Shown piece after piece: positions 1 to 45,307 of a stretch of 45,307 nucleotides of DNA; position 1 is the first letter of the stretch; every line of letters begins with the position of its first letter. A program made the position numbers and the translations under genes. The DNA is from Verrucomicrobia bacterium GWF2_51_19 (GTDB taxonomy: Bacteria > Verrucomicrobiota > Verrucomicrobiia > Opitutales > UBA12508). The notes under the pieces were generated by a model. It was not told the origin of the DNA. It was given only the letters and a program-made list of their open reading frames with translations, and did not search any database. The DNA lies in assembly GCA_001831095.1 (NCBI GenBank), contig MIDP01000001.1, positions 1-45,307 of the forward strand, given 5' to 3'.

Positions 1-97
1 GGCGTTCTCGTCGTTCGGGCTAAGTCACCTACCTTAAAGTAGGCTCCTGTCGCCCTCGCTCCTCGGGCCTTGCTATAGAGCCATTTGACATCGGTCG
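1..97 (-). repeat. family A palindromic element, copy A1 (cut by window edge)
   Basis: The minus strand carries core GGAG-cctac-tttaag-gtagg-TGA. The arm agccatttgacatcggtcg ends at 97, directly against the stop codon at 98..100. Confidence 0.9.
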
Positions 98-1491: not shown

Positions 1492-2889
1492 ATGTTTTCC
1501 TGGCCATTAAATAAAAAAGACACCACCTCCATTCAATTGACCGATTTAAATCGCCATCAAGATATCGGAGCCAATTGCTTGTTGCTTAAAATGGGGCCGT
1601 TTACGGTCGTCGTCGACGCAGGCCTGCATCCAAAAAAGACAGGGCACAAGAGCACGCCAGACTTTTCTAAAATCGATGATTTTTCTGTCGACTACATCTG
1701 CATCACGCACTGTCACCTCGATCACATCGGTTCGCTGCCCATTTTGGCCCGCACGCAGCCACAGGCAAAGATCATTTTGACGTCGCCGTCCAAGGAAATT
1801 TTGCCCCGCATGCTGAACAACTCGCACAGCGTCATGTTGCGGCAGCGCGAGGAATTGGGCATCAACGAATACCCGCTGTACACGCGGACAGAAATCGAGT
1901 ACCTCGAACAACGCTATTTCCCTCTCTTGTTTCAAAAGCCACACGTGTTTGAAAAAAACGGCGAAAAACTCGAGATCACGCTCTATTCGGCTGGCCACAT
2001 TCTGGGCGCCTGCGGCTTTCTCTTTAAGTACAAGCACCGCTCACTCTTTGTCACAGGGGACGTCCTCTTTCGCAACCAAAAGACACTTAAAGGGGCTTCT
2101 TTCCCGAAAATCAAGGTCGACACGCTCGTCATGGAGACGACACGCGGCCTCACCGAGACGGCCGATGCGACGGCCGATGACGAAATGCGGCGCCTCGTCG
2201 ACGTCATTAACCACACGCTCGATCGCGGCGGATCTTGCCTGATTCCCGTGTTCGCGCTCGGTCGCATGCAAGAGATTCTCTTCATTCTCCACGAGGCTAG
2301 GCGTAACAAAAAACTCAAAAACGCTCCCATTTTCTGTTCGGGATTGGGCGTGTCATTGATCGAGGTGTTTGATGAAGTTTCGCGCAAGACGGGCCTCGTT
2401 AACTTTCATAAAAAGATCCTGCAGGACCTCAACGCCAAACCCTTACCCAAGGAGACTTACGAGGGAGGAACCTTACCTGATAAGCCATCTATCTACGTTG
2501 TGAGCAGCGGCATGGTCATCGAAAACACGCCCTCTTACATGGTTGCGGCGGCACTCCTCGGTTCGAAGCAAAACAGCATCTGCTTTGTCGGCTATTGTGA
2601 CCCGGAAACGCCCGGCGGAAAACTCCTCGTCTGCGAGCACAACGAGCCCTTTTTCTTCGAGACCATTCCAACGGAAATCCACGCCCGGGCCGCCATCGAG
2701 CGCTTTGAACTCAGTGGACATGCCAACCGCGAAGAGCTCCTCCAGCTCGTCTACGACATGGACCCCCGTACGGTCGTCCTGTACCACGGCGACGAAGAGG
2801 CCCGCGAATGGGTCTTCGATGAACTCGTCGACCAACACCCCAATTTGCAAGTCATCAACCCAACCCCAGGTGACCCAGTGGCGCTTTAA
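1492..2889 (+). CDS. MBL-fold beta-CASP family hydrolase (RNA/DNA-processing nuclease-like)
   Basis: 465-aa ORF with metallo-beta-lactamase motif HCHLDHIGSLP, and later SGH and YHGD motifs typical of beta-CASP/CPSF-like enzymes. Confidence 0.85.
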   Translation: MFSWPLNKKDTTSIQLTDLNRHQDIGANCLLLKMGPFTVVVDAGLHPKKTGHKSTPDFSKIDDFSVDYICITHCHLDHIGSLPILARTQPQAKIILTSPSKEILPRMLNNSHSVMLRQREELGINEYPLYTRTEIEYLEQRYFPLLFQKPHVFEKNGEKLEITLYSAGHILGACGFLFKYKHRSLFVTGDVLFRNQKTLKGASFPKIKVDTLVMETTRGLTETADATADDEMRRLVDVINHTLDRGGSCLIPVFALGRMQEILFILHEARRNKKLKNAPIFCSGLGVSLIEVFDEVSRKTGLVNFHKKILQDLNAKPLPKETYEGGTLPDKPSIYVVSSGMVIENTPSYMVAAALLGSKQNSICFVGYCDPETPGGKLLVCEHNEPFFFETIPTEIHARAAIERFELSGHANREELLQLVYDMDPRTVVLYHGDEEAREWVFDELVDQHPNLQVINPTPGDPVAL

Positions 2890-4040
2890 ACCCTCCACAG
2901 CGGCTGATTGGGGGTGAGGTTTTGCAAAAAGTGTTCGCAGGGCAGGTAGAGAATGTTGCCTTGTTTTAAAATCTCATGGCCTCGATAGAGAATGGCCAAT
3001 TGCGCCATTGGGTAGTCGTGGGCAAAGGCTTTGAGACCACGCTGGTCTTCAGGGCGGACTTTTTGCGTGCTCTTCACTTCAAAGGCCCATAAGCCGCTCT
3101 CTCCATAGATGACGAAATCCACCTCTAACTGGGCCCGTGTTTGCCAAAAATAGACCTTGTTGGGGACGTCGGTGTAGTCGCACCAGGCATGTAGGTGTTG
3201 AAAAATGAGCCCTTCTAGCGCGGCTCCTTCGATTTCTGAAACGCTGTCCAGCGGCCCAGTTGGCCGTATCGATCGGAAAATGCCTGTGTCGAAAAAATAA
3301 AACTTTTCCTGGTGTGATAAGAGCCGTTGCGCCCGTTTTGTAAAAACCGACAGGCGATGTCCAAGCAGTAGGTCTTCTAAAATAGAGACATAGGATTCGA
3401 CGCGTTTTCGTTCGACGGCGCAGTCCCGGGCGATGGATGCCAAATTCAAGGTGCTTCCATGTGAAAAAGAGATCGATTCCAAAAAGCGGCTGAAATCGCC
3501 AATATGGCGCGTCAAGCCCTCCATTTGAATTTCTTCGCGAAGGTAGAGACCTGCATAGGCGTTTCTTTTCTCAATGGGTGATACGGCGCCCCAGACGAGG
3601 GGTAACATGCCCCAGTTTAGGCCTTTTTCGATCGAAAAAGCTTTACCGAGTTCGGCTGCCATGAACGGATGCATGCGCTTATTGAGCGCCCGCCCGCCCA
3701 GCAGGTTCATGCCGCCTTGACGCAGTTTCCGCGGGCTCGAGCCCGTTAGCGCAAATTGCAGGGTCTTGTCTTTTTCGATCAGCAGATGGACAGCATTCAA
3801 AATCGTAGGCACCTTTTGCACCTCATCGATGATGAAGGTTTTTCTAGCAGTCCCCGCCTGCACTTCCAGCAGACGCTCGGGATGGCTCGCGTAGATCCGG
3901 AAGGTCGCTTCGTCCAGCAGGTCGATATAGACGGCATCAGCCATTTCCTTGCGACACCACAAAGACTTGCCTGTCCCGCGTGGACCCAATAGGAAAAAGC
4001 TGTCGGCTGGTTGTTTGAAAAGTCGCCTGATGTTGTTCAT
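2886..4040 (-). CDS. AAA+ ATPase of AAA_14/DUF4143 type with C-terminal D..ExK motif (paralog 2 of 4)
   Basis: C-terminal 384 aa of ORF 2886..4676, starting at ATG 4040 (MNNIRRLFKQP). Walker A GPRGTGKS, IIDEVQ, LYLREEI segment, EVDFV-x-FEVK. The part upstream of 4040 is antisense to mnmE and to a repeat array. Confidence 0.85.
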   Translation of the reverse strand: MNNIRRLFKQPADSFFLLGPRGTGKSLWCRKEMADAVYIDLLDEATFRIYASHPERLLEVQAGTARKTFIIDEVQKVPTILNAVHLLIEKDKTLQFALTGSSPRKLRQGGMNLLGGRALNKRMHPFMAAELGKAFSIEKGLNWGMLPLVWGAVSPIEKRNAYAGLYLREEIQMEGLTRHIGDFSRFLESISFSHGSTLNLASIARDCAVERKRVESYVSILEDLLLGHRLSVFTKRAQRLLSHQEKFYFFDTGIFRSIRPTGPLDSVSEIEGAALEGLIFQHLHAWCDYTDVPNKVYFWQTRAQLEVDFVIYGESGLWAFEVKSTQKVRPEDQRGLKAFAHDYPMAQLAILYRGHEILKQGNILYLPCEHFLQNLTPNQPLWRV

Positions 4041-4069
4041 GGTTTTGACATTCAATATGGCGAGACAAA

Positions 4070-4197
4070 CTCCATTTTGCAAGTCAAAACGGAGTTGATA
4101 TCTCCATTTTGCAATGCAATTTGGAGATCGAAACTCCATTTTGCAATGCAATTTGGAGTCGCAACCTCCATTTTGCAACAACCTCCACTTTTTTATG
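4070..4197 (+). repeat. tandem array, 4 units of exactly 32 bp, each starting CTCCATTTTGCAA
   Basis: The motif starts at 4070, 4102, 4134 and 4166. Units 2 and 3 are nearly identical imperfect palindromes (ctccattttgcaatgcaatttggag). The array lies in the divergent gap between ATPase paralog 2 and mnmE. Confidence 0.9.
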
Positions 4198-5630: not shown

Positions 5631-5656
5631 GATGAGGCATGAATAGCAACGACCCA

Positions 5657-5776
5657 AGATCGACTCAAAATGGCTCTATAGCAAGGCCCGAGGAGCGAGG
5701 GCGACAGGAGCCTACTGACGTAGGTGACTTAGCTCGAACGACGAGAACGCCGCTAGAGGCCATTTTGAGTCGATCT
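5657..5776 (+). repeat. family A palindromic element, copy A2
   Basis: Perfect 18-bp arms 5657..5674 / 5759..5776. Core GGAG-cctac-tgac-gtagg-TGA. Confidence 0.95.
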
Positions 5777-7603
5777 TCTTATGATGTGATTGTCTGTGGA
5801 GCAGGCCATGCCGGCTGCGAGGCTGCTCTGGCGGCTGCGCGCATGGGCGCTCGTACGCTCTTGCTTACGGGCAACCTCGATACAATCGCCCAAATGAGTT
5901 GCAATCCGGCCATCGGCGGTCAAGCCAAGGGCCACATCGTTCGCGAAGTCGACGCACTGGGCGGTGAAATGGCCGTCAATACCGACTTTACTGCCATTCA
6001 ATTTCGTTTACTGAATCGCTCAAAGGGCCTCGCCGTTCAGGCTCCGCGCGCGCAATGCGACAAAAAGGCCTATCAGTTTCGCATGAAGCAGACGCTAGAG
6101 ATGCAGCCCAATTTGCACGTCTTTCAGGCCGAAGTGACGGGCTTGATCCTGCGGGATGGTGCCGTTGCGGGTGTCGAGACGAACCTGGGTTGTGCCTTCA
6201 AGGGCAAGACGGTGATTTTGACAACGGGCACTTTTTTAAAGGGTATTATGTTTGTCGGCGATGCGACTGTCGAAGGTGGCCGCATGGGGGATTTTGCCGC
6301 AAAGAGGCTGTCGAAGTCGCTTTTGGACAGCGGTATTCAGCTGGAGCGTCTCAAGACGGGGACTCCGGCGCGCATATTGGGCCGCAGCATTGACTTTTCT
6401 GTCTGCGAGGAGCAGAAGTCTGATTCCGAGCCAACGCTGTTTGCGTTTTACGACACTCGCGAAGAGATGTTCCACGTGGAACAATTGGGTGAAAACAGGG
6501 TGGGGTGGGGGCCCAACACGCGTAGCACCTCCTGTTGGATGACGTATACCAATGATCAAACAGAGGCCGTTATTCAGGCCAATTTGCGCCGATCCGCCAT
6601 GTACGGTGGTAAGATCGAGGGAGTTGGCCCGCGTTACTGTCCGAGTATTGAAGACAAGATTGTTCGCTTCAGCGATAAGGAGCGCCACCGGCTGTTTCTC
6701 GAGCCAGAGGGCATTCATACCGACGAGTGGTATATCAACGGCCTCTCCACGAGTATGCCAATGGAGGTCCAGGAGGCCATTATCCGCACCATTCCTGGAC
6801 TCGAGCAGGCGATTATTACACGTCCAGCCTATGCCGTTGAGTACGATTACGCGCCGCCAACGCAATTGCAGCCCTCGCTGGAATCAAAGTCGATAGGGGG
6901 GCTCTTTTGCGCGGGTCAAATTAACGGAACTTCGGGTTACGAAGAGGCTGCCTGCCAGGGCCTCGTTGCGGGTGTCAATGCTGCTGCTAAATGCCTCGGG
7001 CTGTCGGAGCTCGTTATCGGTCGAGAAGAAGCCTATACGGGTGTCCTTATCGACGACCTCGTCACCAAGGGCACGCAAGAGCCTTACCGCATGTTCACCA
7101 GTCGCGCCGAATACCGCCTCCTTCTCAATCACAACAGCGCTGAACTCCGTTTGATCGACAAGGCCGCCCAGTACAATCTTTTGCCCGAAGCTCGCGTGAC
7201 CGCCATTCGACAAAAAAAGGCCGCCATCGAGCATTGGGTGAGTCGGTTTGAGGGCACGGGTCTCGACGCCCGCGGGACGCTCGCTGACGCCCTCCGTCGC
7301 AACCTTCAAGTCGAGCTCCCCTATGCATTCCAGGCTCTCTCGGGTGCCATTCGCGAGGAAGTTCTCTATCGCGTTCTCTACCGCGGTTACCTCGAAAAAG
7401 ACTTTGCCCACATTGCCAAAATGAAGGCGATTGACGCCGTCCGCATTCCATCCGACTTCAATTACGAAACACTCAAGGGCCTCCGCAACGAGAGCCTCCA
7501 AAAACTCAAGAAGATCCGGCCCCAAACCCTCGGCCAAGCCAGCCGAATCAGCGGCATCAACCCGGCCGACGTCAGCGTCCTTCTGGTCTATCTGCGGAAG
7601 TAG
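5765..7603 (+). CDS. mnmG: tRNA uridine 5-carboxymethylaminomethyl modification enzyme MnmG (GidA)
   Basis: YDVIVCGAGHAGCEAA FAD-binding N-terminus and full-length MnmG-like sequence. TTG 5765 is preceded by AGAGG. The ORF is also open from ATG 5639, but that extension is made of repeat element A2. Confidence 0.88.
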   Translation: MSRSSYDVIVCGAGHAGCEAALAAARMGARTLLLTGNLDTIAQMSCNPAIGGQAKGHIVREVDALGGEMAVNTDFTAIQFRLLNRSKGLAVQAPRAQCDKKAYQFRMKQTLEMQPNLHVFQAEVTGLILRDGAVAGVETNLGCAFKGKTVILTTGTFLKGIMFVGDATVEGGRMGDFAAKRLSKSLLDSGIQLERLKTGTPARILGRSIDFSVCEEQKSDSEPTLFAFYDTREEMFHVEQLGENRVGWGPNTRSTSCWMTYTNDQTEAVIQANLRRSAMYGGKIEGVGPRYCPSIEDKIVRFSDKERHRLFLEPEGIHTDEWYINGLSTSMPMEVQEAIIRTIPGLEQAIITRPAYAVEYDYAPPTQLQPSLESKSIGGLFCAGQINGTSGYEEAACQGLVAGVNAAAKCLGLSELVIGREEAYTGVLIDDLVTKGTQEPYRMFTSRAEYRLLLNHNSAELRLIDKAAQYNLLPEARVTAIRQKKAAIEHWVSRFEGTGLDARGTLADALRRNLQVELPYAFQALSGAIREEVLYRVLYRGYLEKDFAHIAKMKAIDAVRIPSDFNYETLKGLRNESLQKLKKIRPQTLGQASRISGINPADVSVLLVYLRK

Positions 7604-13644: not shown

Positions 13645-14805
13645 TCAATGAAAACAGATCTCCAAAAGAGAGGCGTCGTCGTAAAAAGCCCCCAGGGCTG
13701 CTTTGGCACGCGAAAGGATGGTTTGGCTATTGTTGCATTGCGAACACGTCTGGAAAATGTCGAATAAGTGCTGGAGGTTTTTCAGCGACTCTTGATTGCC
13801 AGATTCGTAGAGTCCGTCGCTGTAGACGTAGAGCCGACTACCGCTAGGCACCTCAATTGATTCCTGCTGATATGTGATGCCTTCCATGCCTCCAATGACC
13901 AGCCCTTTTGCCTGAAGCTTTTGACCAATGCTATGGCCGCTGATGAAGTATGCTGGCGGGTGTCCGCCCGATGCATAGGTGAGCATTCTCGTGTTTTTGT
14001 GAAAGACGCCGTACCAAATCGTAAAGTATTTGTTGCCCTGTGACTCCATGTCGAAAGTTGTGTTGAGTTGTGTTAGGACTTCACCTGGATGACGGAAATC
14101 GGTATTAACCAGAGACTTCGACCTTAGAATATTCAGGAGCGACGCACCGAGCAGGGCCGCGCCAACGCCGTGTCCACAGACGTCCAACAAATAAACGGCG
14201 AAGTGGTCCGGATCAATCCATGAGTACCCCAAGGCGTCTCCCCCGAGCGCACCCGTGCTCAAGTACGACCATTTGGCGTCGAGAATGGCGCCTGCAGAGG
14301 GAGGAGGAAACAGGGAAATCAGGTAGCGTTCCGCCTCGTCTAACTCTTGTCGAATGAGCCGCTGACTTTCGGCAAGGGCCTCAAACGCCTTTTGCTTTTC
14401 CAAGAGCCGGATGTAAGCTTGCGAGTGGTACCGGATGCGGGCAATGAGCTCGAGCGGATGCGGGTATTTTTGAACAAAGTCATTGGCGCCCATCTTGAAT
14501 GCCTTGTATTTCATGTTGGCGTCTTCATGCATACAGAGGACGAGAATGGGAATATCGGTCAACGTTTTCTCGCCCCGCAGGCATTCGATGATGTGTCGAT
14601 TTTTGATTAACGGACAGAGAAAATCAATCAAGATAACGGTCGGATTGACCGTTTTAGCCTTTTCGACGGCGCCAAATGGATCGGCAAAAAACACTGCCGA
14701 GAACTCTGGTGCCAGCATGGCCTGTATCGTCTGACAGCCGAGCTTTGTCGGGTCCACAACGAGCACTCGATGTTCAAAGACCGTGTTAGCGTGTCCAGAG
14801 TTCAT
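13645..14805 (-). CDS. response-regulator receiver fused to PP2C/SpoIIE phosphatase (RsbU-like)
   Basis: 386 aa. N-terminal REC-like domain (VLVVDP.., VILIDF..), coiled linker, and a C-terminal PP2C pattern (GGDALGY, DVCGHGVGAALL, YASGGHPP, YVYSDGL). Confidence 0.85.
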   Translation of the reverse strand: MNSGHANTVFEHRVLVVDPTKLGCQTIQAMLAPEFSAVFFADPFGAVEKAKTVNPTVILIDFLCPLIKNRHIIECLRGEKTLTDIPILVLCMHEDANMKYKAFKMGANDFVQKYPHPLELIARIRYHSQAYIRLLEKQKAFEALAESQRLIRQELDEAERYLISLFPPPSAGAILDAKWSYLSTGALGGDALGYSWIDPDHFAVYLLDVCGHGVGAALLGASLLNILRSKSLVNTDFRHPGEVLTQLNTTFDMESQGNKYFTIWYGVFHKNTRMLTYASGGHPPAYFISGHSIGQKLQAKGLVIGGMEGITYQQESIEVPSGSRLYVYSDGLYESGNQESLKNLQHLFDIFQTCSQCNNSQTILSRAKAALGAFYDDASLLEICFH

Positions 14806-14820
14806 AATCTAAATGAGTTT

Positions 14821-14942
14821 AAGATCGATGCAAAATGGTCTATAGCGACGTTCTCGTCGTTCGGGCTAGGTCACGTACCAACGTACGCTCCCGTTGCCCT
14901 CGCTCCTCGGGCCTGGCTCTAGAGCCATTTTACATCGATCTT
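14821..14942 (-). repeat. family A palindromic element, copy A3
   Basis: Arms 14821..14838 / 14925..14942 pair at 17 of 18. The core on the minus strand is GGAG-cgtac-gttg-gtacg-TGA. Confidence 0.95.
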
Positions 14943-15026
14943 GGATTCGTTGAATAGAAAGGATTAAAAGATGCTTTTTTGAAAAAATTTCGCTTTTTGA
15001 TATAAACCCTTCATTTTGCATCGGTC
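14943..15026 (+). repeat. family D repeat, copy D1
   Basis: About 80 nt that align with 40095..40175. Contains the AT hairpin aaaagatgcttttttgaaaa and ends in cattttgcatcggtc. Confidence 0.8.
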
Positions 15027-15095
15027 TTTTTAGAATTATACAAAAAAGCGTTTTCATGCAATTTTTATTTCTATTGGCGTGTATTCATAACCTAC

Positions 15096-15222
15096 AGACA
15101 GCATGCAAAATAGATGCAAAAATGTGGCTTTGCGCGAGCATGCATGCCGTAGCGTACATAGAGGTACGTGAGGCAGGCCGCGGAGCGCGAAACGCATTTT
15201 GGCGCTATTTTGCATGCTGTCT
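15096..15222 (+). repeat. family B palindromic element, copy B1
   Basis: Perfect 18-bp arms 15096..15113 / 15205..15222. Core GTAG-cgtac-atagag-gtacg-TGA. The right arm touches the mutL stop codon. Confidence 0.95.
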
Positions 15223-16921: not shown

Positions 16922-17051
16922 AAAAGACGTGCGCAAAATAGCGCAAAAATGCATTTCGCGCTCCGCCGACTGCCTCACGTACCATCGTACGCTACGGCAG
17001 ATCGTACTCGCGCAAAGCCACATTTTTGCATCTATTTTTCACACGTCTTTT
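16922..17051 (-). repeat. family B palindromic element, copy B2
   Basis: Arms 16922..16941 / 17032..17051 pair at 18 of 20. The minus-strand core is GTAG-cgtac-gatg-gtacg-TGA. Sits 5 nt upstream of the mutL start. Confidence 0.95.
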
Positions 17052-17166: not shown

Positions 17167-18282
17167 TTATACAGCCAGTGCTGGGGTCTTCACTGTCTTC
17201 AATTTGAAAGAAAAAGTGCTGCCGACGCCCCATTCGCTCTCGACGTTTACAGCGCCGTCCAGCTTTTCGAGAATGCGGTGGACGATCGATAGGCCGAGTC
17301 CGTGGCCCTCACTGTTGATTTGGTTGATGCGGTTGAAGGGAACGAAGATGCCAGGAATGTCTTCCGGAGAGATGCCGATGCCCTCGTCTCGGACAAAGAA
17401 GGTTGCGTTGTCGTTGTCTTGCGTGAAGCCCACTTCGAGAATCGCAGGCAGTCCTTCCTTGGCATACTTCAGTGCATTTGAGAGGTAATTGAACCAGACT
17501 TCTTCGATCCAGGGAGCGTAGCCGAGGATTTTGGGCAGGTCTTTGGCGATGGTGATTTGTGCTTCTTTGAAACGCGGGTGGTTCTCGAGGCGCTTGAGGG
17601 CGGCATCGACGACAGGGCGCATGTCGAAGGCTTCGGGCTTGAATTTCTTCTTGCGGACGCTCGACAGGAACAAGAGCTCGTTGACGATTTTGTTGGCTTT
17701 GAGTCCGGCGACGTACATGGTGTCGGCGTAATCGGAAATGGCCTTGGCTTCGAGCTCGTTGTTGATGGAAGAGAGGATTTCAGCCATGTTGATGATGCCG
17801 TTGAGGGAACTCTTCAGTTCGTGCGCCACGGTATGGGCGAAGGCATCGAGCTCTTGAATGAGCGTGTTTTGCTCATCGATCTTCACTTGCAGCTCTTTTT
17901 GTAAACGGCTGATGGTGAGATGGGTGTTGAGTCGGGCGAGGACTTCCTCTTGCTGGAGCGGTTTGGTGATGTAATCGACGGCGCCAACTTCAAAGGCGTC
18001 GACCTTGTCCTGGACATCTTGTATGACGCTCAAGAAGATGACGGGAATGTCCTTGGTTTCCGGCATTTTCTTGAGTTGTTCGCAGACTTGAAAGCCATCG
18101 AGGCCAGGCATAATCAGGTCCAATAGGATAATGTCTGGAATGGTCGTTTTGGCAATTTCGAGCGCCTTTTCGCCATTGCGCGCGGACAGTAGCCGGAAGT
18201 TGAACTGCTTCAAAAAGTCGCAGAGTACCGACAGATTTGTGGGCTCGTCGTCGACTAATAGTATTGTGTGTTGCTCATTCAT
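17167..18282 (-). CDS. REC-domain histidine kinase (receiver-HisKA-HATPase)
   Basis: ILLVDDEPTN..LLDLIMPGLDG receiver, H-box AHELKSSLNGI, N and G boxes NYLSNALKY, DEGIGI, GHGLGLSIV. Start set to ATG 18282 (MNEQHT), just outside repeat A4. Confidence 0.85.
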   Translation of the reverse strand: MNEQHTILLVDDEPTNLSVLCDFLKQFNFRLLSARNGEKALEIAKTTIPDIILLDLIMPGLDGFQVCEQLKKMPETKDIPVIFLSVIQDVQDKVDAFEVGAVDYITKPLQQEEVLARLNTHLTISRLQKELQVKIDEQNTLIQELDAFAHTVAHELKSSLNGIINMAEILSSINNELEAKAISDYADTMYVAGLKANKIVNELLFLSSVRKKKFKPEAFDMRPVVDAALKRLENHPRFKEAQITIAKDLPKILGYAPWIEEVWFNYLSNALKYAKEGLPAILEVGFTQDNDNATFFVRDEGIGISPEDIPGIFVPFNRINQINSEGHGLGLSIVHRILEKLDGAVNVESEWGVGSTFSFKLKTVKTPALAV

Positions 18283-18286
18283 AACA

Positions 18287-18533
18287 AAGGTCATTGCAAA
18301 AGTGTCTCTAGCGGCGTTCTTCCCGCAGGCAAATGGGGCAAAAAGTTCGTTATCCATCGTGATTCGCCTAGGTCACGCATTTCAATGCGCTCCCGTCGGC
18401 TCACACTCGGAAGCCTGTTTCTTGCTACATTTGCCTGCGGGACTGTCGTTCGGGCTAAGTCACGTACCAACGTACGCTCCCGTTGCCCTCGCTCCTCGGG
18501 CCTGGCTATAGGCGCATTTTTCAAAGGCCTTTT
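18287..18533 (-). repeat. composite element A4: family A shell carrying a nested family C element
   Basis: The family A sequence gcggcgttct is interrupted at 18320/18321 and resumes as ctgtcgttcgggctaagtcacgtac at 18443. The outer arms are degenerate. Confidence 0.9.
18321..18442 (-). repeat. family C element, copy C1 (nested in A4)
   Basis: Perfect 15-bp arms tcccgcaggcaaatg / catttgcctgcggga. The minus-strand core is GGAG-cgcat-tgaa-atgcg-TGA. Confidence 0.95.
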
Positions 18534-18572
18534 CCTTTCTCGGAAAAATATACAGCATGGAAGCACAAAAAC

Positions 18573-18691
18573 CTCTGCAAAATGCCGTCAAAGCTTGGCT
18601 GTGCGTGGGCACGATCTGGCATAGCGTACATAGGCGTACGTGAGCCAATATGTGTAGCGCGCGAAACGAGCTTTCACGGTATTTTGCAGAG
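18573..18691 (+). repeat. family B palindromic element, copy B3
   Basis: Arms 18573..18588 / 18676..18691 pair at 15 of 16. Core ATAG-cgtac-ataggc-gtacg-TGA. Ends 4 nt from the histidine kinase stop codon. Confidence 0.95.
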
Positions 18692-18695
18692 ATCT

Positions 18696-21600
18696 TCATA
18701 GCAGGGTTTCTAAGAAGGCAATCACGGCGTCATCGCGAAAGGCTCTGGCGTCGCTCGTTACCTTCTTTATAAAGGGCTTTAATTCTGGTTTGTCTTTGGC
18801 GAGTGCGCAACACTTTTCTTTAACGGCCTCTAGGTCGCCCATTTTGGCCAAGGCCAAGAGGCTTTCTATGATGGGTTTGGCTGGGGGAACGATGGCGCTG
18901 TCGGGCCCTTTTTCATCTGCCGGAACACCGGTTTCTCCATCGTAAATCCAGGTGAGGCTCAAATGTTGTTCGAGAGAACTCAAGAGTATTTCCAGTGTGA
19001 TCGGCTTAGCGACGAAGCCATCGCAGCCTGCCTGAAACATCTTTTGCCTCTCGTTCTCCAAGACGCTGGCCGAAACAGCAATAATCGGTGTTTTTTGGAA
19101 AGCGATGTGCTTGCGCAACTGTTGGGTCATTTCACAGCCGTCCATTTGAGGCATAATCCAGTCGAGCAAAATAATATCTGGCTTGAATTGTAGTGCCTTT
19201 TCGATACCCTCAATGCCGTTGTAGGCCTTTTCGAGCTCAAAGCCGAGAGGCGCCAGCATGCCGACAATGACATCGACATTGGTGGTGTTGTCATCGACGA
19301 CGAGGATCTTCTTGCGGTCGCCCTGATAGCCGCGGCAGGCCTGTCGGTACTCTTGTTCTTCGATGCGCTGGTGGACGTTTAAGAAGACTTCAGGCAATTC
19401 GATGTCGAACCAGAACTGCGAACCCTGGCCAACGCGACTCCAGAGGTTGAGTTCACCGCCCATCATGTGAACGAGCTTGCGACTGATCGACAGCCCTAAT
19501 CCCGTGCCCTCTGCCTTGTACGTTTGGGAGGCGACTTGATGAAAAGAGTCAAAGATTTTCTTTTGTTCGGCCTCGGGAATGCCTATGCCGGTGTCTTCGA
19601 CCAAAAAGCGGTAACGCTTGGGCGAGCCTTTGGGGTAGCCGAGTGCCGGGCCGATTTTCAACTTCACGTGGCCCTTGTCGGTGAACTTGACGGCGTTGCC
19701 GATGAGGTTGATGAGGATTTGGCGCAGGCGTTGTTCATCTGAAAGGACGACTTGTGGCACCGGGCATTCGAGCGTTGCCGTCTCTGCGACGAAATCGAAG
19801 TACTCGACGGCGAAATCGATGCCCTTTTCTTGGGCGCGCAGAATGACAATTTCCCTGATCGTTGTGATGAACTCGGGGAAATGAAAGCCGTTATTTTGCA
19901 GACTCATCTTGCCGGCTTCGATTTTGGAGAGGTCGAGAATGTCGTTGATGAGCGTTAAGAGGTGTTCGCCGCTGCGTCGAATGGTGTCCACGCTCTTCAA
20001 TTGATCGCCGGTAAGCGTTGTGTGGGTCTTGAGGATCTGTGCGTAGCCCAAAATTCCGTTGAGGGGCGTCCGGATCTCGTGGCTCATGTTGGCCAAAAAC
20101 TTGCTTTTAGCGATGTTGGCCCGCTCGGCGACAATAGCCATCTCCTGGGAACGATCGATGGCGCGCTTCAGTTCCAGCTCGGTGCGCTTTTGCTCGGAAA
20201 TGTCTTCGGCGATACACAACAAATAATCGGGGTTGCCCTGGTTGTCGAGAATCGGCAGTTTGACGACATGTAAGGTCCTCGGCTCGCCGGAATGCTTGTT
20301 TATGACGCATTCTGGCAGCACCTGCTTGATCTTTTGTTGAAAACACGTGATTTCTTTGTCGGTAAACAATTGTTTGAGGGCGTTGTCCTTGTCGGCATCG
20401 ACCAAGGTTTCGGGATCCCGCCCCATGACGTCGATGGCGCGTATCCCAAAAAAGCTCTCGCACATGCGGTTCCATAAAATGACCTCGCCAAAGCGGTTCT
20501 GTTGGACATGTTTGACAAACAGTGCGACGGGCAAAAAGTCGATCATCGTCTGCAAAAATGCCCGGTTTTCTTCGAGCTCTTTTTTCGCCTGCTTCTTCTC
20601 CGTGATGTCCCTTAAAATACTCAAGAAGTAGCGTTCCTTGTTGATCGCCAGGCACGAGAGCGACATTTCCGAATGGAACGGTTTGCCGCCTTTGCGCAAC
20701 AGAACAAATTCGTCGACGCGGCCCAGGGCAAAGTCTTTATCGGCGTCTTCAAAATGCTGGAATTCGTCTTGATAACGCTCCTGTTGTTCCGGTGGCACGA
20801 GTTTTGTAAAAAAATTCTCGCCCAAAACATCAACCGCGTCATACCAAAAAATGTTTTCAGCCGCCTCGTTCCAAAAGACGATTTTGCCAGTGCTGTCCAT
20901 CATGATAATGGCGTCTTGGGCGCAGGACGTGATTTTGTGAAACGTTTCCTCGCGCGCCCGCAGCGACTCTTCGGTCTCTTTGAGCTTTCGCATGATCGAG
21001 ACAAAGACGTAGATGACGGTGCACAAAATGACGGCAAACATCGTGGCGATCGACACAATGGTTTTCTTGATGGGAGCGATCAGTTGACTCTGATTGATCG
21101 AATAAATATATGGGATCGTCTTCCCGTTGATGCGCAGTGGGTAGAAAGTGGACATCACGTCATCGGCAAAAAAACCTTTGTCGAGGGGCCCTATGCGGTT
21201 GCCCTCGAGCCCCTCTTGTGTCTCGCGCGTGATGGCGTCCAGAAGCCGCTTATCGGGCGCAAAAGGATCATGCGTAAGCGGAGCGTGTAAGAAAATCGGT
21301 CCTTCTTGTTGGATCGTCCAGGTCCAAATCAACGCTCTGCCCAACGATGGAGGCGTCGTGATGGCCGCCAAGAAACGCGCGATATTGATCTCGAGGTAGA
21401 TTGTGTAACTGAGGCCCTTTGACGTCACTTTTTCGACAACATAATCGCGTTCTGGGCGCATGTCATTGACGTCAGTTTTGCCCATCACCACGAAATAGTT
21501 GTGAGCGTCCAAATAAATGTAGCGGTACTCTTCGCGCTCGTTGACAATGATAATGCGCTCCAAGAGGGCCTTGTTTTTGAGGAAAAACTGTTTCAGCCGA

Positions 21601-23752: not shown

Positions 23753-23819
23753 AGGAATACCAACGACATAAGACCGTTTATTATCGACCTTATGTTGTTT
23801 GTATTCATTTAGTTAGATC

Positions 23820-23948
23820 AAAGACCGACACAAAACACCGTCAAAGCTTGGCTTTGCGCGAGCACGATCTGCCGTAGCGTACATAGAAGTACGTGAGGCA
23901 GTCGGCGGAGCGCGAAACGAGCTTTCACGGTGTTTTGTGTCGGTCTTT
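23820..23948 (+). repeat. family B palindromic element, copy B4
   Basis: Perfect 22-bp arms aaagaccgacacaaaacaccgt / acggtgttttgtgtcggtcttt. Core GTAG-cgtac-atagaa-gtacg-TGA. A T-run follows the right arm. Confidence 0.95.
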
Positions 23949-32374: not shown

Positions 32375-33774
32375 ATAAAGAGTTACAGGGTATCGATCCA
32401 TCCGTTGGCAACTTCCATTACGACACGGCTTACGCCTTGGATGCCGGTGTAGGTCTCGATGAGAAGACGGTGCAATACATTTCTGCGGCCAAAGAAGAGG
32501 CGCCCTGGTTGCTCAATTTTCGCCAAAAAGCCCTAAAAGTCTTTCAATCGAAGTCGTTGCCGCTGCACTGGGCGCCGGCCGAAATCGCCAACATCGACTT
32601 TGCCAAACTCCGCTATTATTTGGCTAAAGGCGGCCCGGTGAGCCGTTCCTGGGACGACGTTCCTGAGGACGTCAAGCGGACCTTCGAGCGTTTGGGCGTG
32701 CCAGAAAAGGAACGGAAGTACTTGGCGGGCGTCGAGGCACAGTTTGACAGCGAATCCGCCTATTCTCGCATTCAAGAAAACTTGACCAAGCAAGGCGTGA
32801 TTTTTGTCGGCTCGACAGAGGGTCTCAAACACTTTCCCGACATTTTCCGGCCCTACTTTGGCCGCGTGATTCCAACGGACGACAACCTCTTTAGCGCGCT
32901 CAACAGTGCCGTTTTCAGCGGCGGCAGCTTCATCTACGTCCCACCCGGCGTCAAGGTCAAGCAACCCCTACAGGCCTATTTCCGCATCAACGCAGAGAAC
33001 TCTGGCCAGTTTGAGCGCACACTCATTATCGCCGATGAGGGCTCGGAGGTCACCTACATTGAAGGTTGCACCGCCCCCCGCTTCGACACCACTAACCTCC
33101 ATTCGGCCGTCGTTGAGCTCATCGCCAAAAAAGGGGCAAAGATTCAGTACATCACGGTCCAAAACTGGTCTACAAACGTCTACAACCTCGTCACCAAGCG
33201 CGCCGTTGCCGAGGAGGCTGCAGAAGTCCGCTGGATCGACTGCAATATAGGCTCCAAGCTGACTATGAAGTACCCTGGCGTTGTCCTCAAGGGTCGAAAA
33301 GCACGTGGTGAAGTGTTATCCATTGCACTGGCCAATACCGGCCAACACCAAGATACGGGTGCTAAAATGATCCACGTCGCCGAGGAAACGACGTCGAACA
33401 TCGTGGCGAAATCAATCTCCATCGGAAAAGGACGCTCATCCTACCGAGGCCTCGTGCACATTCCGAGCGGACTGAAGGGTTGCAAAAACAACACCCAATG
33501 CGACGCCCTCCTGATCAATACCGAAAGCCGCACTGACACCTATCCAGCCATTCGCGTCACCGGCGACCTCGCCAGCGTCCAGCACGAGGCCAGCGTCTCC
33601 AAGGTTAGCGAAGATCAAATCTTTTACATGCAGCAACGCGGCCTCACGGAAGCCGAAGCCATGAGTTTGAGCGTCAACGGCTTTGTCAACGAACTCGTCC
33701 GCGCCTTTCCCATGGAGTACAGCATTGAGCTTAAGCGACTTATCGACATCGAGATGACGGGCGCCATAGGGTAA
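32371..33774 (+). CDS. sufB: Fe-S cluster assembly scaffold SufB
   Basis: 467 aa with full-length SufB-like sequence. ATGA start/stop overlap with sufC. Confidence 0.9.
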
Positions 33775-34008
33775 GAATCGCGCACAATAATGCCAAAATG
33801 CGTTTTGCGCTCCGCCGACTGGCCACGGGGAAACCTTTTATAGAATAAAAGGCTTCCCCGACCCCCATCCCAAACACTTTTTAAGCGAAACACAAAAATG
33901 CATGCATTTTTATATTTCGCAAAGAAATGGGTGAAGCTGGAATGTCAGCTCTGTCTCTACGGGAGATCGTGCTCGCGCAAAGCCAGTGGCATCTATTTTG
34001 CGCGATTC
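33775..34008 (-). repeat. family B element, copy B5, with core replaced by an insertion of about 130 bp
   Basis: The left half (33775..33823) and right half (about 33955..34008) match B2/B6. The centre holds the hairpin 33826..33860 and the 18-bp palindrome aaaaatgcatgcattttt (33894..33911). Starts directly after the sufB stop. Confidence 0.85.
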
Positions 34009-34098
34009 TTTTTGAGGTAGTTGAAGACCTGCTGTTTTCCAACGGTGGATGTTTTTTGCTTGCAAAAGCTAGAAAGAATCATTTGCTTTTTCTTAAGT

Positions 34099-34185
34099 GC
34101 CTAGATGGCGGAATCGGCAGACGCGCCGGACTCAAAATCCGGTTCCCGCAAGGGAGTGAGGGTTCAACCCCCTCTCTAGGTACCA
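34099..34185 (+). tRNA. tRNA-Leu (anticodon CAA), class II with long variable arm, encoded CCA
   Basis: Hand fold: acceptor GCCTAGA/TCTAGGT (G1-U72 wobble), D stem GCG/CGC, anticodon stem CCGGA/TCCGG with loop CTCAAAA, variable arm CCC-GCAA-GGG, T arm GAGGG-TTCAACC-CCCTC, then A-CCA. Confidence 0.85.
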
Positions 34186-34186
34186 T

Positions 34187-34421
34187 AAGACTGATGCAAA
34201 ATAACGTGAAAAAGACCGATGATAAATGGTTTCTAGCGGCGTTCTCGTCGTTCGGGCTAAGTCACGTACCACATGTACGCTCCTGTCGCCCTCGCTCCTC
34301 GGGCCTGGCCAGACAACCATTTATCATCGGTCTTATGTCATTGGTATTCATTTAGTTAGATTAAAAAACGCTGTAAAATGGATGTAAAAATCTGGCTTTG
34401 ACATTATTTTGTATCAGTCTT
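34187..34421 (+). repeat. degenerate B-like shell enclosing copy A5
   Basis: Arms aagactgatgcaaaata (34187..34203) and tattttgtatcagtctt (34405..34421) pair at 16 of 17. The interior keeps a B-left fragment (34371..34400). Starts 1 nt after tRNA-Leu. Confidence 0.75.
34212..34334 (-). repeat. family A palindromic element, copy A5
   Basis: Perfect 20-bp arms 34212..34231 / 34315..34334. The minus-strand core is GGAG-cgtac-atgtg-gtacg-TGA. Confidence 0.95.
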
Positions 34422-35460: not shown

Positions 35461-35534
35461 TGGCTGCCCGGCAAGGACTCGAACCTTGACAAACTGAGTC
35501 AGAGTCAGTTGTGCTACCATTACACCACCAGGCA
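35461..35534 (-). tRNA. tRNA-Gln (anticodon CUG), encoded CCA
   Basis: Hand fold of the reverse complement: acceptor TGCCTGG/CCGGGCA (the U1-A72 pair typical of bacterial tRNA-Gln), anticodon stem ACTGA/TCAGT with loop CTCTGAC, T arm CAAGG-TTCGAGT-CCTTG, then G-CCA. 74 nt. Confidence 0.9.
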
Positions 35535-35536
35535 AT

Positions 35537-35780
35537 AAAATCGTTGCAAAATGTCCTCTAGCGGCGTTCTTCCCGAAGACAAATTGGGCAATAAGTTCGT
35601 TATCCTTCGTGATTCGCCTAGGTCACGCATTTCAATGCGCTCCCGTTGGCTCACACTCGGACGCCTGCTTCTTGCCCCATTTGTCTTCGGGACTGTCGTT
35701 CGGGCTAGGTCACGTACCAACGTACGTTCCCGTCGCCCTCGTTCCTCGGGCCTTGCTATAAGCTATTTTCCAACGATTTT
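35537..35780 (-). repeat. composite element A6: family A shell carrying a nested family C element
   Basis: Same architecture and same interruption point as A4. Arms 35537..35553 / 35764..35780 pair at 15 of 17. The A core is GGAA-cgtac-gttg-gtacg-TGA. Begins 2 nt from the tRNA-Gln 5' end. Confidence 0.9.
35571..35692 (-). repeat. family C element, copy C2 (nested in A6)
   Basis: Perfect 14-bp arms tcccgaagacaaat / atttgtcttcggga. Core identical to C1. Confidence 0.95.
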
Positions 35781-36757: not shown

Positions 36758-36787
36758 CGTGAATAGTTTTAATTCATGACGTGAATA
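36750..36787 (+). repeat. 16-bp direct repeat ATTCATGACGTGAATA x2 (period 22 bp)
   Basis: Copies at 36750..36765 and 36772..36787. Copy 1 spans the tatD stop codon and copy 2 spans the GTG start of ATPase paralog 3. Each copy has internal dyad symmetry, attca-tgacg-tgaat. Confidence 0.85.
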
Positions 36788-38010
36788 AAATAATCCCACG
36801 GTGGACGGAGCCTTTGCTGGAAAAGGCTTTAAGCACAATGCCGGTTGTCGTTATCAGCGGAGCTCGGCAGACGGGCAAAACAACACTGGTAAAGAAGGCA
36901 AAAAGTTGCCTCAAGCGAAAGTTTCTCTCTTTTGACGATTTGGATGTCTTAGATCAGGCGAAACGGTCGCCAGACTCATTATTGAATGAGCTTCCTGTAA
37001 CGATTGACGAGGTGCAGCGGTATCCCGATTTTTTATTGAGTGTAAAAAAGAAAGTCGATGATCAACGCAACCCCGGGATGATTTTGTTAACGGGGTCTGC
37101 CAATTTAGCTCTGATGCGAGGAGTCAGTGAAAGTCTAGCGGGTCGAGCGCTCTATGTCGAGCAAGCTCCCTTTTGTGCGGCAGAATGGTTTGGCCGAACA
37201 GCAGTATTCACGTTAATCGATGCTTTTTTCGACAAAACAATGCCGCTCGTGGCTCGGAATGATGCCCAAACGTCTTGGGAATCGTCCTTTTTGTCTGGCG
37301 GTTATCCTTCCGTCATGCAGCTGCAGTCGCCTGAAGAGCGCAGTTTGTGGCATTCTGGGTATATCAAGACTTACTTAGAGCGCGATCTCAGAATGTTGGG
37401 TGAAATCAGCAGCATTATTGATTTCCAGAGGCTGATGCGAATGGCGGCGTTGCGCACGGCGAGACTCTTAAATCAGTCTGAGTTGGCCAGGGACGCAGGC
37501 CTTTCGCAATCAACGTGTCATCGTTATCTCAATCTTTTAGAAACGGGTTATCAAATTTCAAGGATGCATAACTTGACGTTGAATAGAGCCAAAGGGTTGG
37601 TGAAGAGCGCGAAATTGATGTGGTCCGATTCTGGTATTTGTGCGAACCTCGCCCATATGTACAACGAAGAGGATGTGCGTGGTCGGGCGGATGTCGGGTT
37701 TTGGTTGGAACAGCACGTTTTTCAGACTTTGCAGGCGTGGAAAGCCTCTCACTACAATGCATCCATTCATTACTGGCATCAAAGGCCGCACGAGGTCGAT
37801 TTCGTTTTGCAAAAGGACAATCGTCTCGTGGCCATTGAGATCAAACTGAGTTCGCAGATCCGCACGGATGACATAAAGGGCCTTCAAGCGTTTCAAGAAA
37901 CATTTAAGCGTCATTTTGCCGTAACGCGGGGCATTGTTATTTACAGCGGCAAGGACATGAAGGACTTAGGCAATGATATGTTGGCCGTTCCCATCCAATC
38001 TTTAACATAA
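36781..38010 (+). CDS. AAA+ ATPase of AAA_14/DUF4143 type with C-terminal D..ExK motif (paralog 3 of 4)
   Basis: GTG start. Walker A GARQTGKTT, TIDEVQ, TYLERDL segment, EVDFV-x-IEIK. Confidence 0.85.
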   Translation: MNKIIPRWTEPLLEKALSTMPVVVISGARQTGKTTLVKKAKSCLKRKFLSFDDLDVLDQAKRSPDSLLNELPVTIDEVQRYPDFLLSVKKKVDDQRNPGMILLTGSANLALMRGVSESLAGRALYVEQAPFCAAEWFGRTAVFTLIDAFFDKTMPLVARNDAQTSWESSFLSGGYPSVMQLQSPEERSLWHSGYIKTYLERDLRMLGEISSIIDFQRLMRMAALRTARLLNQSELARDAGLSQSTCHRYLNLLETGYQISRMHNLTLNRAKGLVKSAKLMWSDSGICANLAHMYNEEDVRGRADVGFWLEQHVFQTLQAWKASHYNASIHYWHQRPHEVDFVLQKDNRLVAIEIKLSSQIRTDDIKGLQAFQETFKRHFAVTRGIVIYSGKDMKDLGNDMLAVPIQSLT

Positions 38011-38048: not shown

Positions 38049-38168
38049 AAAGGCCGTTGAAAAATGTTCTATAGCAAGGCCCGAGGAATGAGGGCGACAG
38101 GAGCCTACTGACGTAGGTGACTTAGCCAGAACGCCGAGAACGCCGCTACCCATTTTTCAACGGCCTTT
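38049..38168 (+). repeat. family A palindromic element, copy A7
   Basis: Perfect 18-bp arms 38049..38066 / 38151..38168. The core is identical to A2. The right arm runs into a 7-T tract, so it is terminator-like for ATPase paralog 3. Confidence 0.95.
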
Positions 38169-38178
38169 TTTTACAAAA

Positions 38179-39969: not shown

Positions 39970-40094
39970 GACCGAGTCAAAATAGCGCCAAAATGCGTTT
40001 TGCGCTCCGCTGACTGCCTCACGTACCTCTATGTACGCTACGGCATTCATGCTCGCGCAAAGCCACATTTTTGCATCTATTTTGCATCGGTCTT
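39968..40094 (-). repeat. family B palindromic element, copy B6
   Basis: Arms 39968..39985 / 40077..40094 pair at 16 of 18. The minus-strand core is GTAG-cgtac-atagag-gtacg-TGA. The left arm begins inside the lepA stop codon. Confidence 0.95.
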
Positions 40095-40175
40095 TGGCTC
40101 GTTGAATAAAAAAGTTTCAAAAGATGCTTTTTTGAAAATGTCGCTTTTTACATAAACATTCATTTTGCATCCGCC
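40095..40175 (+). repeat. family D repeat, copy D2
   Basis: Aligns with 14943..15026. Ends directly against the methyltransferase stop codon at 40176. Confidence 0.8.
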
Positions 40176-44906: not shown

Positions 44907-45307
44907 CCGATTATCTGGGTCCTCAATCATTAGCGAAATTTTATTATCGTGTATCGATTTTACGATGTGCCCTTGAATGGCACCACATTAGAGGCACTCA
45001 CTCCATCCAACTCTGCGTGTGTCAACACGCCCTCGATGCGCCGTTAGAGAGCTCGACGGGTCGCTGGAGCCTTTTGTGGCGCACTCCTTCTGCATCCGAG
45101 AGCGGCTGTGGCTGTTAAAAAAACAAGATATTGGAATGGATTTATCGCTGTTTTTAGAAAAGAATCTTTAAATATAGTATTTTTATAAAAAGTCAAGCTT
45201 TTTCGTGATTTTTTTGCAAGTTCAAGTACGAAGTGCAACACGTGACAGGAAAAAAGAGAAGAGAGTTGAAAGGAAGGAGGAGAGATGCAAAGCTGGTGAT
45301 TTTCTGA

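Follow-up and report, generated by a model that had tools for sequence, protein, structure and literature searches.

The window, by which we mean the whole 45,307-nucleotide stretch of Verrucomicrobia bacterium GWF2_51_19 that was analysed, contains two palindromic repeats of a family termed A that are each interrupted by a unit of a second family, C. The first of these A+C composites, A4 (18287..18533, plus strand), has a response-regulator/histidine-kinase gene (17167-18282, minus strand) on one side, with the start codon facing it, and on the other an adjoining family-B repeat (18568..18696, plus strand; core ATAG-CGTAC-ataggc-GTACG-TGA) whose outer arms are of the same type as those of A. 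The outer arms of A4 are AAGGTCATTGCAAAAGTG (18287-18304) and GCATTTTTCAAAGGCCTT (18514-18531). Its left shell (18287..18320, plus strand) ends in ...TCTCTAGCGGCGTTCT and is followed by the 122-nt copy C1 (18321..18442, plus strand), after which the right shell (18443..18533, plus strand) restarts with CTGTCGTTCGGG and contains the A core (18460-18480, minus strand; GGAG-CGTAC-gttg-GTACG-TGA). Across the joints, the sequence reads gcggcgttct, then C from tcccgCagGcaaat to atttgCctGcggga, and then A again from ctgtcgttcggg. C1 has its own outer arms, TCCCGCAGGCAAAT / ATTTGCCTGCGGGA, which are perfect complements, and its own core (18373..18393), which reads GGAG-CGCAT-tgaa-ATGCG-TGA on the minus strand.

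The second composite, A6 (35537..35780, plus strand), is found between a bordering tRNA-Gln (35461-35534, minus strand) and a TatD gene. It holds the 122-nt copy C2 (35571..35692, plus strand), which is bounded by tcccgAagAcaaat and atttgTctTcggga, has the arms TCCCGAAGACAAAT and ATTTGTCTTCGGGA, and contains a core at 35623-35643; the right shell of A6 (35693..35780, plus strand) carries its A core at 35710-35730. The junction is the same as in A4, with A being split in both directly after GCGGCGTTCT and its left end stopping at ...TCTAGCGGCGTTCT. An earlier note on this DNA had assigned a GGAG-hairpin-TGA core to the design, which is present in C, but the tag of the A6 core is mutated to GGAA. 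The note was right in describing compensated changes between the arms of C1 and C2, which differ by exactly two compensated base pairs. The predicted folds (z between -5 and -8 overall) are very stable for both RNA and DNA, at -52.8 kcal/mol for the plus strand of C1 and -61.9 for its minus strand (z about -6 to -7), -53 to -62 kcal/mol for single units in general (z between -6 and -8), and -95 to -97 kcal/mol as RNA or -45 as DNA for the composite.

A4 and A6 are approximately 90% identical (18291-18513 versus 35541-35763), and this similarity ends at the outer arms, with the flanks of both composites being unrelated. Since there is no flanking homology, the pair is not a segmental duplication, as had been noted before. 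Metagenome contigs from ENA and JGI match the window at 100% identity, and the NCBI assembly GCA_003447165.1 matches it at 99.9%; the sample comes from the Rifle groundwater series. An identical copy of the A4 composite is present in ENA scaffold L001, while the A6 composite is found with 3 SNPs in an independent assembly from another sample (L018); as both have been recovered in other assemblies, they are not assembly chimeras. Both composites are genuine and not assembly artefacts. The only differences of GCA_003447165.1 are NN scaffold gaps inside A copies, the assemblies being near-clonal, and a reading of these differences as strain polymorphism was rejected because the gaps are an artefact.

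A shared plan and a mosaic of repeats

Families A, B, and C are built to a common plan in which long self-complementary arms surround a core hairpin that has a tag on one side and TGA on the other. The basic unit is about 122 nt in size and its core is a 5-bp hairpin, with the 5' tag being GGAG in families A and C and GTAG in B, and the 3' side TGA. Written on the strand opposite to that used here, the A core is GGGC-RAC-R-GGAG-[CGTAC or CCTAC]-loop-[GTACG or GTAGG]-TGA-CYTAGCCC, the C core is AGCC-RRCG-GGAG-CGCAT-tgaa-ATGCG-TGA-CCTAGGCG, and the B core is CTGCC-GTAG-CGTAC-atagag-GTACG-TGA-GGCAG. The core is enclosed by long segments with imperfect pairing, beyond which the outermost arms extend for 17 to 20 or more bp. 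A and B have a common type of outer arm, AAGACC-nnn-GCAAAATGG, and the same arm variants are found on both, while the arm of C is its own, YCCCG.... A catalogue of cores (31 rows, two of which repeat loci in the L012/L015 overlap) places 29 cores at distinct loci in about 95 kb, all of them intergenic, with more in L021 and L022. The core stems are 5 bp (6 when a G-T pair is counted) and the loops 4-6 nt, and the stems of A, B, and C differ in sequence yet stay paired. Each unit of A, B, or C has a single core, and in the composite the C core and the A core are in direct orientation.

C had been described in the earlier note as a smaller version of the same design. This is wrong with respect to size, as the A shell consists of 34 plus about 88 nt, approximately 122 nt in total, against 122 nt for C. 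A profile built from C also detects solo A copies over their full length, although weakly (E about 1e-3). The equal size together with the full-length match makes C a distant paralogue of A rather than a reduced form of it. The units are without coding capacity and belong to no known RNA family. Open reading frames across the units (122-247 nt) match only ORF calls over these same repeats, translated C finds only the window's own ORF in the protein database, and Rfam 15 returns only two tRNAs at gathering score for the window and no match at E <= 10 for positions 18200-18750.

A BLAST search of the window with C finds only two places, A4 and A6, while the A shell finds seven, so that two of these seven A copies carry C. 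The five solo A copies are spread along the window. One at 1..96 (plus strand) is cut on its left by the window start and abuts the stop codon of a DUF4143 ATPase gene; a second, at 5656..5777 (minus strand), lies between mnmE and mnmG; a third, at 14821..14942 (plus strand), shows the intact junction GTTCTCGTCGTT; a fourth, at 34212..34334 (plus strand), is inside a family-B shell (34187-34421); and a fifth, at 38050..38167 (minus strand), lies between a DUF4143 ATPase gene and lepA. Further family-B repeats are located at 15096..15222 (plus strand; core GTAG-CGTAC-atagag-GTACG-TGA), 16924-17049 (minus strand), 23821-23947 (plus strand), and 39968-40094 (minus strand). Overall, the units fill short spacers inside operons and among housekeeping genes (mnmE/mnmG, mutL, lepA, and tRNAs).

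C in A is not the only case of one element within another. In addition to the A copy inside the B shell at 34187-34421, a B shell at 33773..34010 (minus strand) has its core hairpin replaced by an insert, D, of about 150 nt, and this arrangement recurs with the same left junction at L012:13469-13712. An IS-like element of 817 nt with inverted ends lies inside an A copy at L008:5644-6460, where it is flanked by a 10-bp duplication, GCTTTCTAGC. A conserved 27-nt linker, ATGTYRTTKGTATTCATTTAGTTAGAT, joins elements at three loci and comes after a right arm at 23792-23818 and 34335-34361 in the window and at about 3606-3632 in L006; A-B and A-E tandems are also present. A+C is thus one recurring combination among several in a BIME-like mosaic of palindromic modules. 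There is also an IS-like element near 45.3 kb, and the contigs covering the window end there (about 45.35 kb).

Copies beyond the window were sought by two routes. An exact 20-mer of the C core was searched in metagenome contigs and gave five further full composites of the same organism, in L006, L007, L008, L012 (which overlaps L015), and L014, all with C at the same position of A, after GTTCT. Peptides derived from A were compared with the protein database, which led to two proteins and about 32 kb of new sequence (L021 and L022) containing six more solo A copies, two B copies, and one truncated composite relic; what remains in the relic, in L021, is the right half of C together with the junction and 13 nt of A. 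The view of C as a discrete unit nested in A at the same nucleotide is therefore borne out by eight occurrences, and the further composites that the note had suggested looking for amount to five full loci and one truncated one, with the position of the junction always the same. Solo C units at many unrelated sites, which would have spoken against this view, did not turn up, as no canonical solo C is present in about 127 kb and the eight canonical C units all adjoin A at this one point. A single diverged C-like unit (L008:7556-7645, C profile, E = 2e-7; tag GAAG) lies outside A and is without outer C arms. In the data not chosen via C (the window, L021, and L022), about 3 of 14 A copies contain C. 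Outside these contigs, a scan for the C core in representative genomes, one per species, produced one chance match in a coding region of Acidobacteriaceae.

Compensated changes in the arms

The arms vary between copies in a way that preserves their pairing. When the left arm of C is compared with the reverse complement of its right arm in the six full copies, 0-2 positions differ within a copy (mean 1.0), against a mean of 4.3 between copies. RNAalifold predicts 45 pairs for C, 12 of which have changes on both sides; all of these double changes are among the outer 17 of roughly 21 arm pairs, and the outer ten pairs show no one-sided change. The consensus fold of A, from 14 copies, similarly has double changes in 12 of 36 pairs. 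One pair of the A core hairpin is G-C in 8 copies and C-G in 6, and the pair closing the A core is A-U in 9 and G-C in 4. When the outer arms of A and B are taken together, the 22 complete elements have a mismatch of 1.8 within an element versus 5.5 between elements, a value reached by none of 10000 permutations. Arm compensation is far beyond chance.

The variable arms contain hardly any G-T pairs, and mismatches of mixed kinds make up the few cells that are unpaired. The near-absence of G-T pairs fits complementarity at the DNA level better than selection on an RNA helix, and this pattern in the aligned copies suggests that the arms are kept complementary as a DNA hairpin rather than by RNA selection. 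It is possible that a folded single strand or a cruciform is required for copying, or alternatively that the two arms are repaired against one another.

Junctions, shells, and the origin of the composites

The intact A sequence GTTCT-CG-TCGTT is replaced in the composites by GTTCT-[C]-CTG-TCGTT. Two junction variants can be told apart, type 1 (T..A+CTG) and type 2 (C..T+TCG). Type 1, with CTG after C, occurs in five composites that have different shells, while type 2 is found in L006, L008, and the L021 relic and fits either a clean insertion into GTTCT^CGTCG or a 2-bp TC duplication. CG is present at the junction in all 15 complete solo A copies and in two further fragments. That the type-1 CTG is common to five different shells points to a common origin of that junction, and so do the unchanged position in all eight cases and the lack of any canonical solo C.

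The shells themselves do not follow the same pattern. Two composite shells differ by a mean distance of 0.195, a composite and a solo shell by 0.202, and two solo shells by 0.206, and the nearest or joint-nearest shell neighbour is a solo copy for four of the six composites. Each of the three A core subtypes is represented among composites as well as among solo copies, and C distance is uncorrelated with shell distance (r = -0.31). A CTCTAGC variant present in all seven composites was considered as a composite mark, but it was not distinctive after six more solo A copies had been added. As the shells are neither monophyletic nor co-diverging with C, spread as a unit needs added recombination. 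The single nesting event followed by spread of the whole unit that the earlier note proposed is hence only partly supported. The shared CTG junction speaks for a common origin, but the shells do not form one clade and show no co-divergence, and the stronger decay of the outer A arms in composites, described below, is a further point against simple spread; either recombination between copies or movement of C into existing A is needed as well. Orthologous empty sites were sought through the TatD neighbour, but its identity falls from 100% to about 46% at the next relative, the protein collection containing no closer one.

On balance, we lean towards a reading in which the composites would be two-storey members of a lineage-specific, non-coding superfamily of hairpin repeats that spreads with exchange between copies and is mobilised in trans. 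We infer mobility, a single-stranded DNA intermediate, a mode of spread, and recombination, and these could be combined as follows. The superfamily, REP/MITE-like in nature, fills the intergenic spacers of its host genome. C sits in the left half of A, where it separates the T and the C of GTTCT^CGTCG, and A+C is itself a repeat family with at least eight loci. Its junction may have arisen once or twice and then been copied along with adjacent A sequence, through transposition of the whole composite or through gene conversion among dispersed A copies, and exchange between such dispersed copies would give rise to the mosaic shells. The copies would be mobilised in trans as folded single-stranded DNA by an enzyme encoded elsewhere, which may read the core by sequence and the arms by pairing.

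Alternatively, C may be a separately mobilised parasite of a parasite, with each composite being an independent, site-specific insertion into a pre-existing A that is reached by recognition of a local hairpin or of the folded A element. This is a serious rival, though we consider it unlikely. It would account for the occurrence of composite shells in every A core subtype and for their intermingling with solo A, as well as for C and shell distances that are uncorrelated. It would also agree with the state of the arms, as the outer A arms of composites carry 3.5 mismatches of 18 versus 1.4 in solo A (Mann-Whitney p = 0.013), while the C arms in the same composites are near perfect with approximately 1 mismatch (paired Wilcoxon p = 0.06 against the outer A arms). 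In single-sequence folds, the site of C falls in the loop of a small side hairpin, on its 3' edge. Among insertion sequences, the loops of palindromic units are targets of IS1397 and ISKpn1, and REP and attC sites are targets of elements of the IS1111 type. However, the side hairpin is without covariation support, and the consensus fold pairs the site differently. Independent insertion would moreover need CTG to be recreated in each of the five type-1 composites, when the solo A copies all have CG, and no canonical solo C that could act as a donor has been seen outside A.

The age of C relative to A has also been considered in this regard. With hairpin regions excluded, the C interior is less diverged than that of A (4.7% versus 9.7%), which would favour later insertion, but the copy sample is small and was partly chosen by the exact C-core 20-mer, which biases C divergence downward, and the difference in variable columns is not significant once this ascertainment is allowed for. 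A larger contrast, 3.9% for the C interior and 13.6% for A, was dropped as a sign of a younger C, as it was inflated by the retrieval of the extra copies with the exact C-hairpin 20-mer. A4 and A6, which were found without any C pattern, have equal interior divergence (5/78 for A and 5/84 for C).

A stronger form of this idea would make C a hyperparasitic hairpin that homes to one exact position of its paralogue A by way of folded single-stranded DNA, with one arm being rebuilt on the other at every round of copying, which would explain arms that vary fast and yet are perfect in their Watson-Crick pairing. We regard this as decidedly unlikely. If it were true, it would be a structure-guided, self-targeting mode of spread that has not been described for bacterial miniature repeats.

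It could also be supposed that the composite is the older form and that solo A copies arose by precise loss of C through replication slippage between flanking TC repeats. Long perfect palindromes are prone to deletion, and interleaved solo and composite shells would be expected. A TC stands on each side of C (TC...TC) in the composites of type 2, namely L006, L008, and the L021 fragment, so that collapse would give exactly the solo junction GTTCTCGTCG. Collapse of a type-1 composite, however, would give GTTCTGTCG, which is absent among solo copies. C is a complete unit that has both arms and a core and shows full-length homology to A, which is the signature of an insertion. In the data not chosen via C, there are about four solo copies for each composite. 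As the uncorrelated C and shell distances are also left unexplained, loss of C from an older composite is very doubtful.

A different kind of explanation is that the host retains the units as structured RNA modules in operon spacers, for instance to stabilise mRNA, to provide processing sites, or to regulate translation, with their pairing under RNA selection. Copies do lie inside operons, often with 3-15 nt between the end of the left arm and a start codon, and the stability of the predicted folds noted above would be expected of such modules. Closeness to start codons is nevertheless also expected for insertions in short spacers. Of the 15 copies with clear context, 11 read GGAG-hairpin-UGAC in mRNA sense, but this orientation bias was rejected as not significant (one-sided binomial p about 0.06). 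The variable arms are nearly without the G-U pairs that RNA selection would tolerate, there is no Rfam match, and selfish DNA typically shows spread in many copies, nesting, and truncated relics. Promoter-like and terminator-like sites at the elements are not above chance. A host-kept RNA function is accordingly highly improbable as the reason for these repeats. Finally, an artefact of segmental duplication or of chimeric repeat assembly is barely conceivable, for although repeats do break assemblies, as seen in the NN gaps inside A copies of GCA_003447165.1 and the contigs that end near 45.3 kb, the unrelated flanks and the presence of both composites in other assemblies stand against it, as do six further composite loci with different unique flanks and different arms.

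Relation to known repeat systems

Several classes of bacterial repeat resemble the A/B/C units in part, tagged REPs being the closest that have been described. They consist of a short hairpin with an unpaired 4-nt tag, GTAG/CGTC, and have sub-families with complementary stem changes; in A. variabilis, T. roseum, and H. neapolitanus, REPs are found within longer palindromes for which a REP-free form was not found (Di Nocera, De Gregorio, and Rocco 2013, PMC3733652). Like these, A, B, and C have a core hairpin with a 4-nt tag and, as in some REP families, a 3-nt motif opposite, and they are high-copy, extragenic, and located between genes transcribed in the same direction. The embedding of a REP in a palindrome for which no empty form was found is parallel to C being present in A only as a composite. 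Unlike tagged REPs, the units of A, B, and C have a single core each and are not dimers, and it is the palindrome of approximately 122 nt that is itself the repeat, with a full unit being nested in a paralogous unit. The definition of GTAG REPs requires a stem of 5-13 bp, a short loop, and the tag GTAG or one of GYAG, GYRG, GTRG, GTMG, and GTGG (PMC3733652). The B core (GTAG-CGTAC-loop-GTACG-TGA) fits this tag definition, and all three cores are small palindromes with many extragenic copies, but the tag of A and C is GGAG and only family B carries GTAG. As GGAG is outside the listed variants, A and C are not filed as GTAG REPs.

REPINs, which are mobilised by RAYTs, are made up of two inverted REPs at the ends of a variable, paired spacer; a single-stranded DNA intermediate has been proposed for them, and compensatory changes on both sides of the hairpin are common (Bertels and Rainey 2011, PMC3116915). 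The units described here are likewise non-autonomous hairpin repeats of about 100 nt that form diverse populations within one genome. They differ in that a single conserved core is central and the variable, paired parts are the outer arms, and the two cores of the A+C composite are direct rather than inverted, so that it is not a REPIN doublet. Base-pair compensatory changes have been described for bcr1 as well, and BIMEs and NIMEs are mosaics of palindromic units with conserved linkers (PMC3184786). The conserved 27-nt linker and the clustering of units make the present repeats a mosaic of the BIME kind.

The units also share features with MITEs in the broad sense (Correia elements, bcr1, BIMEs, and NIMEs), such as a length of 100-250 nt, terminal inverted repeats, and an intergenic location; the outer arms are AAGACCnnnGCAAAATGG and its complement, and the units, at 122-247 nt, are below 300 bp and without coding capacity. 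TA...TA flanks several A copies but not all of them, with T or A usually found before AAGACC, while C is flanked by at most TC...TC (2 bp) in type 2 and by nothing consistent in type 1. Unlike in MITEs derived from DDE elements, the arms vary in a compensated manner, and a DDE transposase that recognises a specific sequence is not expected to tolerate such variation. Three other classes were rejected. The ends of the units, AAGACC.../TCCCG..., are not the GTTRRRY of integron attC sites, and the copies are scattered with no integrase, unlike gene cassettes arrayed beside one; elements derived from IS200/IS605, which have a different subterminal hairpin at each end and lack terminal inverted repeats, do not fit, as each unit is palindromic throughout and has one core at its centre; and ribozymes were rejected on anatomy.

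Nesting of one small repeat in another has precedents elsewhere. Jiang and Wessler in 2001 reportedly described amplified nested MITEs ("multimers") in plants, and Elhai et al. in 2008 are said to have found small dispersed repeats nested in cyanobacterial MITEs. These plant and cyanobacterial cases usually show target-site duplications or very short inserts. They are similar to the composites in that a small non-autonomous element lies inside another and the nested form is multi-copy, although the hosts and the element families differ. The A/B/C superfamily is a previously undescribed, lineage-specific set of REP/MITE-like repeats, while palindromic nesting itself is already known. The A+C nesting does not reveal a new kind of system and is a fairly ordinary case of nesting among selfish palindromic repeats.

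The enzyme that would act in trans in our preferred reading was looked for in the sequence at hand. Pfam scans found no transposase domains in the genes scanned, a crude motif search gave no match to the HUH transposase motif in about 95 kb, and neither a RAYT, a Y1 HUH transposase whose gene the repeats of such systems typically flank, nor a parent IS with matching ends was found. Collections of plasmid, phage, and viral sequences contain no match to the repeats.

The value of these repeats is that their levels of nesting are unusually clear, with C and the IS-like element in A, and both A and D in B, and that their variation strongly preserves structure. They offer a data set to specialists in REPs, RAYTs, and MITEs in which recognition by fold can be weighed against recognition by sequence, and spread as a unit against targeted insertion. 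At a practical level, such repeats break assemblies and draw ORF calls, which is relevant to the annotation of MAGs. ORFs have here been extended into the repeats by gene callers.

Assembly differences and gene calls at the repeats

Comparison of the window with the near-identical assembly L002 (GCA_003447165.1) revealed one SNP, at 15143, which lies within a copy of family B, one of the palindromic intergenic repeat families A, B, and C. The remaining differences between the two are only short NN-containing gaps within A copies, at window 5683, 14870, and 18469-18500. Located at the repeat cores, these gaps are scaffolding artefacts and do not represent strain variation. Public gene calls also enter the repeats, as three examples show. 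The call at 17167-18357 (minus strand) is a 396-aa version of a response-regulator kinase with its start inside C, that at 5639-7603 (plus strand) is a 654-aa MnmG whose start lies across an A copy, and that at 33927-34355 (plus strand) is a 142-aa ORF covering a tRNA-Leu and an A copy. These extensions into the repeats are annotation artefacts.

Composite, linked, and solo units

A second composite family is made up of a B shell, or outer repeat, in which the core hairpin has been swapped for an insert of about 150 nt, and it is found at window 33773-34010 and at 13469-13712 of L012, another contig of the same organism. Within the insert, GGGGAAAG...CTCTCCCC makes a hairpin resembling a terminator, and GCGAAA...TTTCGC makes a palindrome. 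The left junction is identical at both loci. The composite at window 34187-34421, directly downstream of the tRNA-Leu, is A nested in B: a family-B shell with arms AAGACTGATGCAAAATA / TATTTTGTATCAGTCTT contains a complete A copy (34212-34334), a linker of 27 nt that is conserved, and one more fragment. This linker, ATGTYRTTKGTATTCATTTAGTTAGAT, runs from the right arm of one element to the left arm of the next and is present at window 23792-23818 and 34335-34361 and at about 3606-3632 of contig L006. A different segment of about 75-85 nt is common to window 14943-15030 and 40095-40171, where an intact A or B unit precedes it and an extra solitary right arm (CATTTTGCATCGGTCTT) forms its end; in such arrays a single left arm is accompanied by two right arms. 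A diverged solo C-like unit at L008:7545-7655 has the core GAAG-TGCAC-atgag-GTGCA-GAC and no A shell around it, and just upstream is a small, very basic ORF (...KKRRLKMNKHKRSKRSRANRHKKRTWQV).

Genes next to the repeats

Often just 3-15 nt separate the left-arm end of an A repeat, or of an A repeat with nested C (A+C), from the following gene's start codon, as at window 18282-18287, 14805-14821, 5777-5786, and 38167-38179, at about 7057-7062 of contig L014, and at about 2742-2746 of L008. Such a distance leaves no space for a separate ribosome-binding site. This closeness could mean that the units insert preferentially at such positions or that they influence expression. A and A+C repeats also occur in the intergenic spacers of a non-flagellar type III secretion system gene cluster of this Edwardsbacteria MAG, at L008:441-5605 (YscK, YscJ, YscI, needle YscF, and YscD).

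Four paralogous AAA_14 ATPase genes lie within the 45 kb of the window, at 98-1348, 2886-4139, and 43635-44852 on the minus strand and 36781-38010 on the plus strand, and three of them carry DUF4143. An A repeat is found immediately 3' of the stop codon in two of the four, and the end of an IS-like element is upstream of one.

IS-like element and tandem hairpins

This element resembles an IS or a MITE, has inverted ends that read CCTCAATCATTAGCGAAAT..., and is present at window 44921-45209, L008:5644-6460, and L008:7784-7841. The 817-nt copy at L008:5644-6460 interrupts an A repeat and has a 10-bp direct duplication, GCTTTCTAGC. Three contigs that cover the last gene of the window all stop about 340-580 nt past that gene, within or just beyond the element.

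A tandem array at window 4067-4178, which overlaps the predicted start of the DUF4143 ATPase gene at 2886-4139, repeats a 32-nt unit 3.5 times. The unit is CTCC-ATTTTGCAA-TGCAATTT-GGAG followed by a 7-nt spacer, and each one is a small hairpin. The ATTTTGCA motif that these units contain recurs in A and B, within their outer arms.
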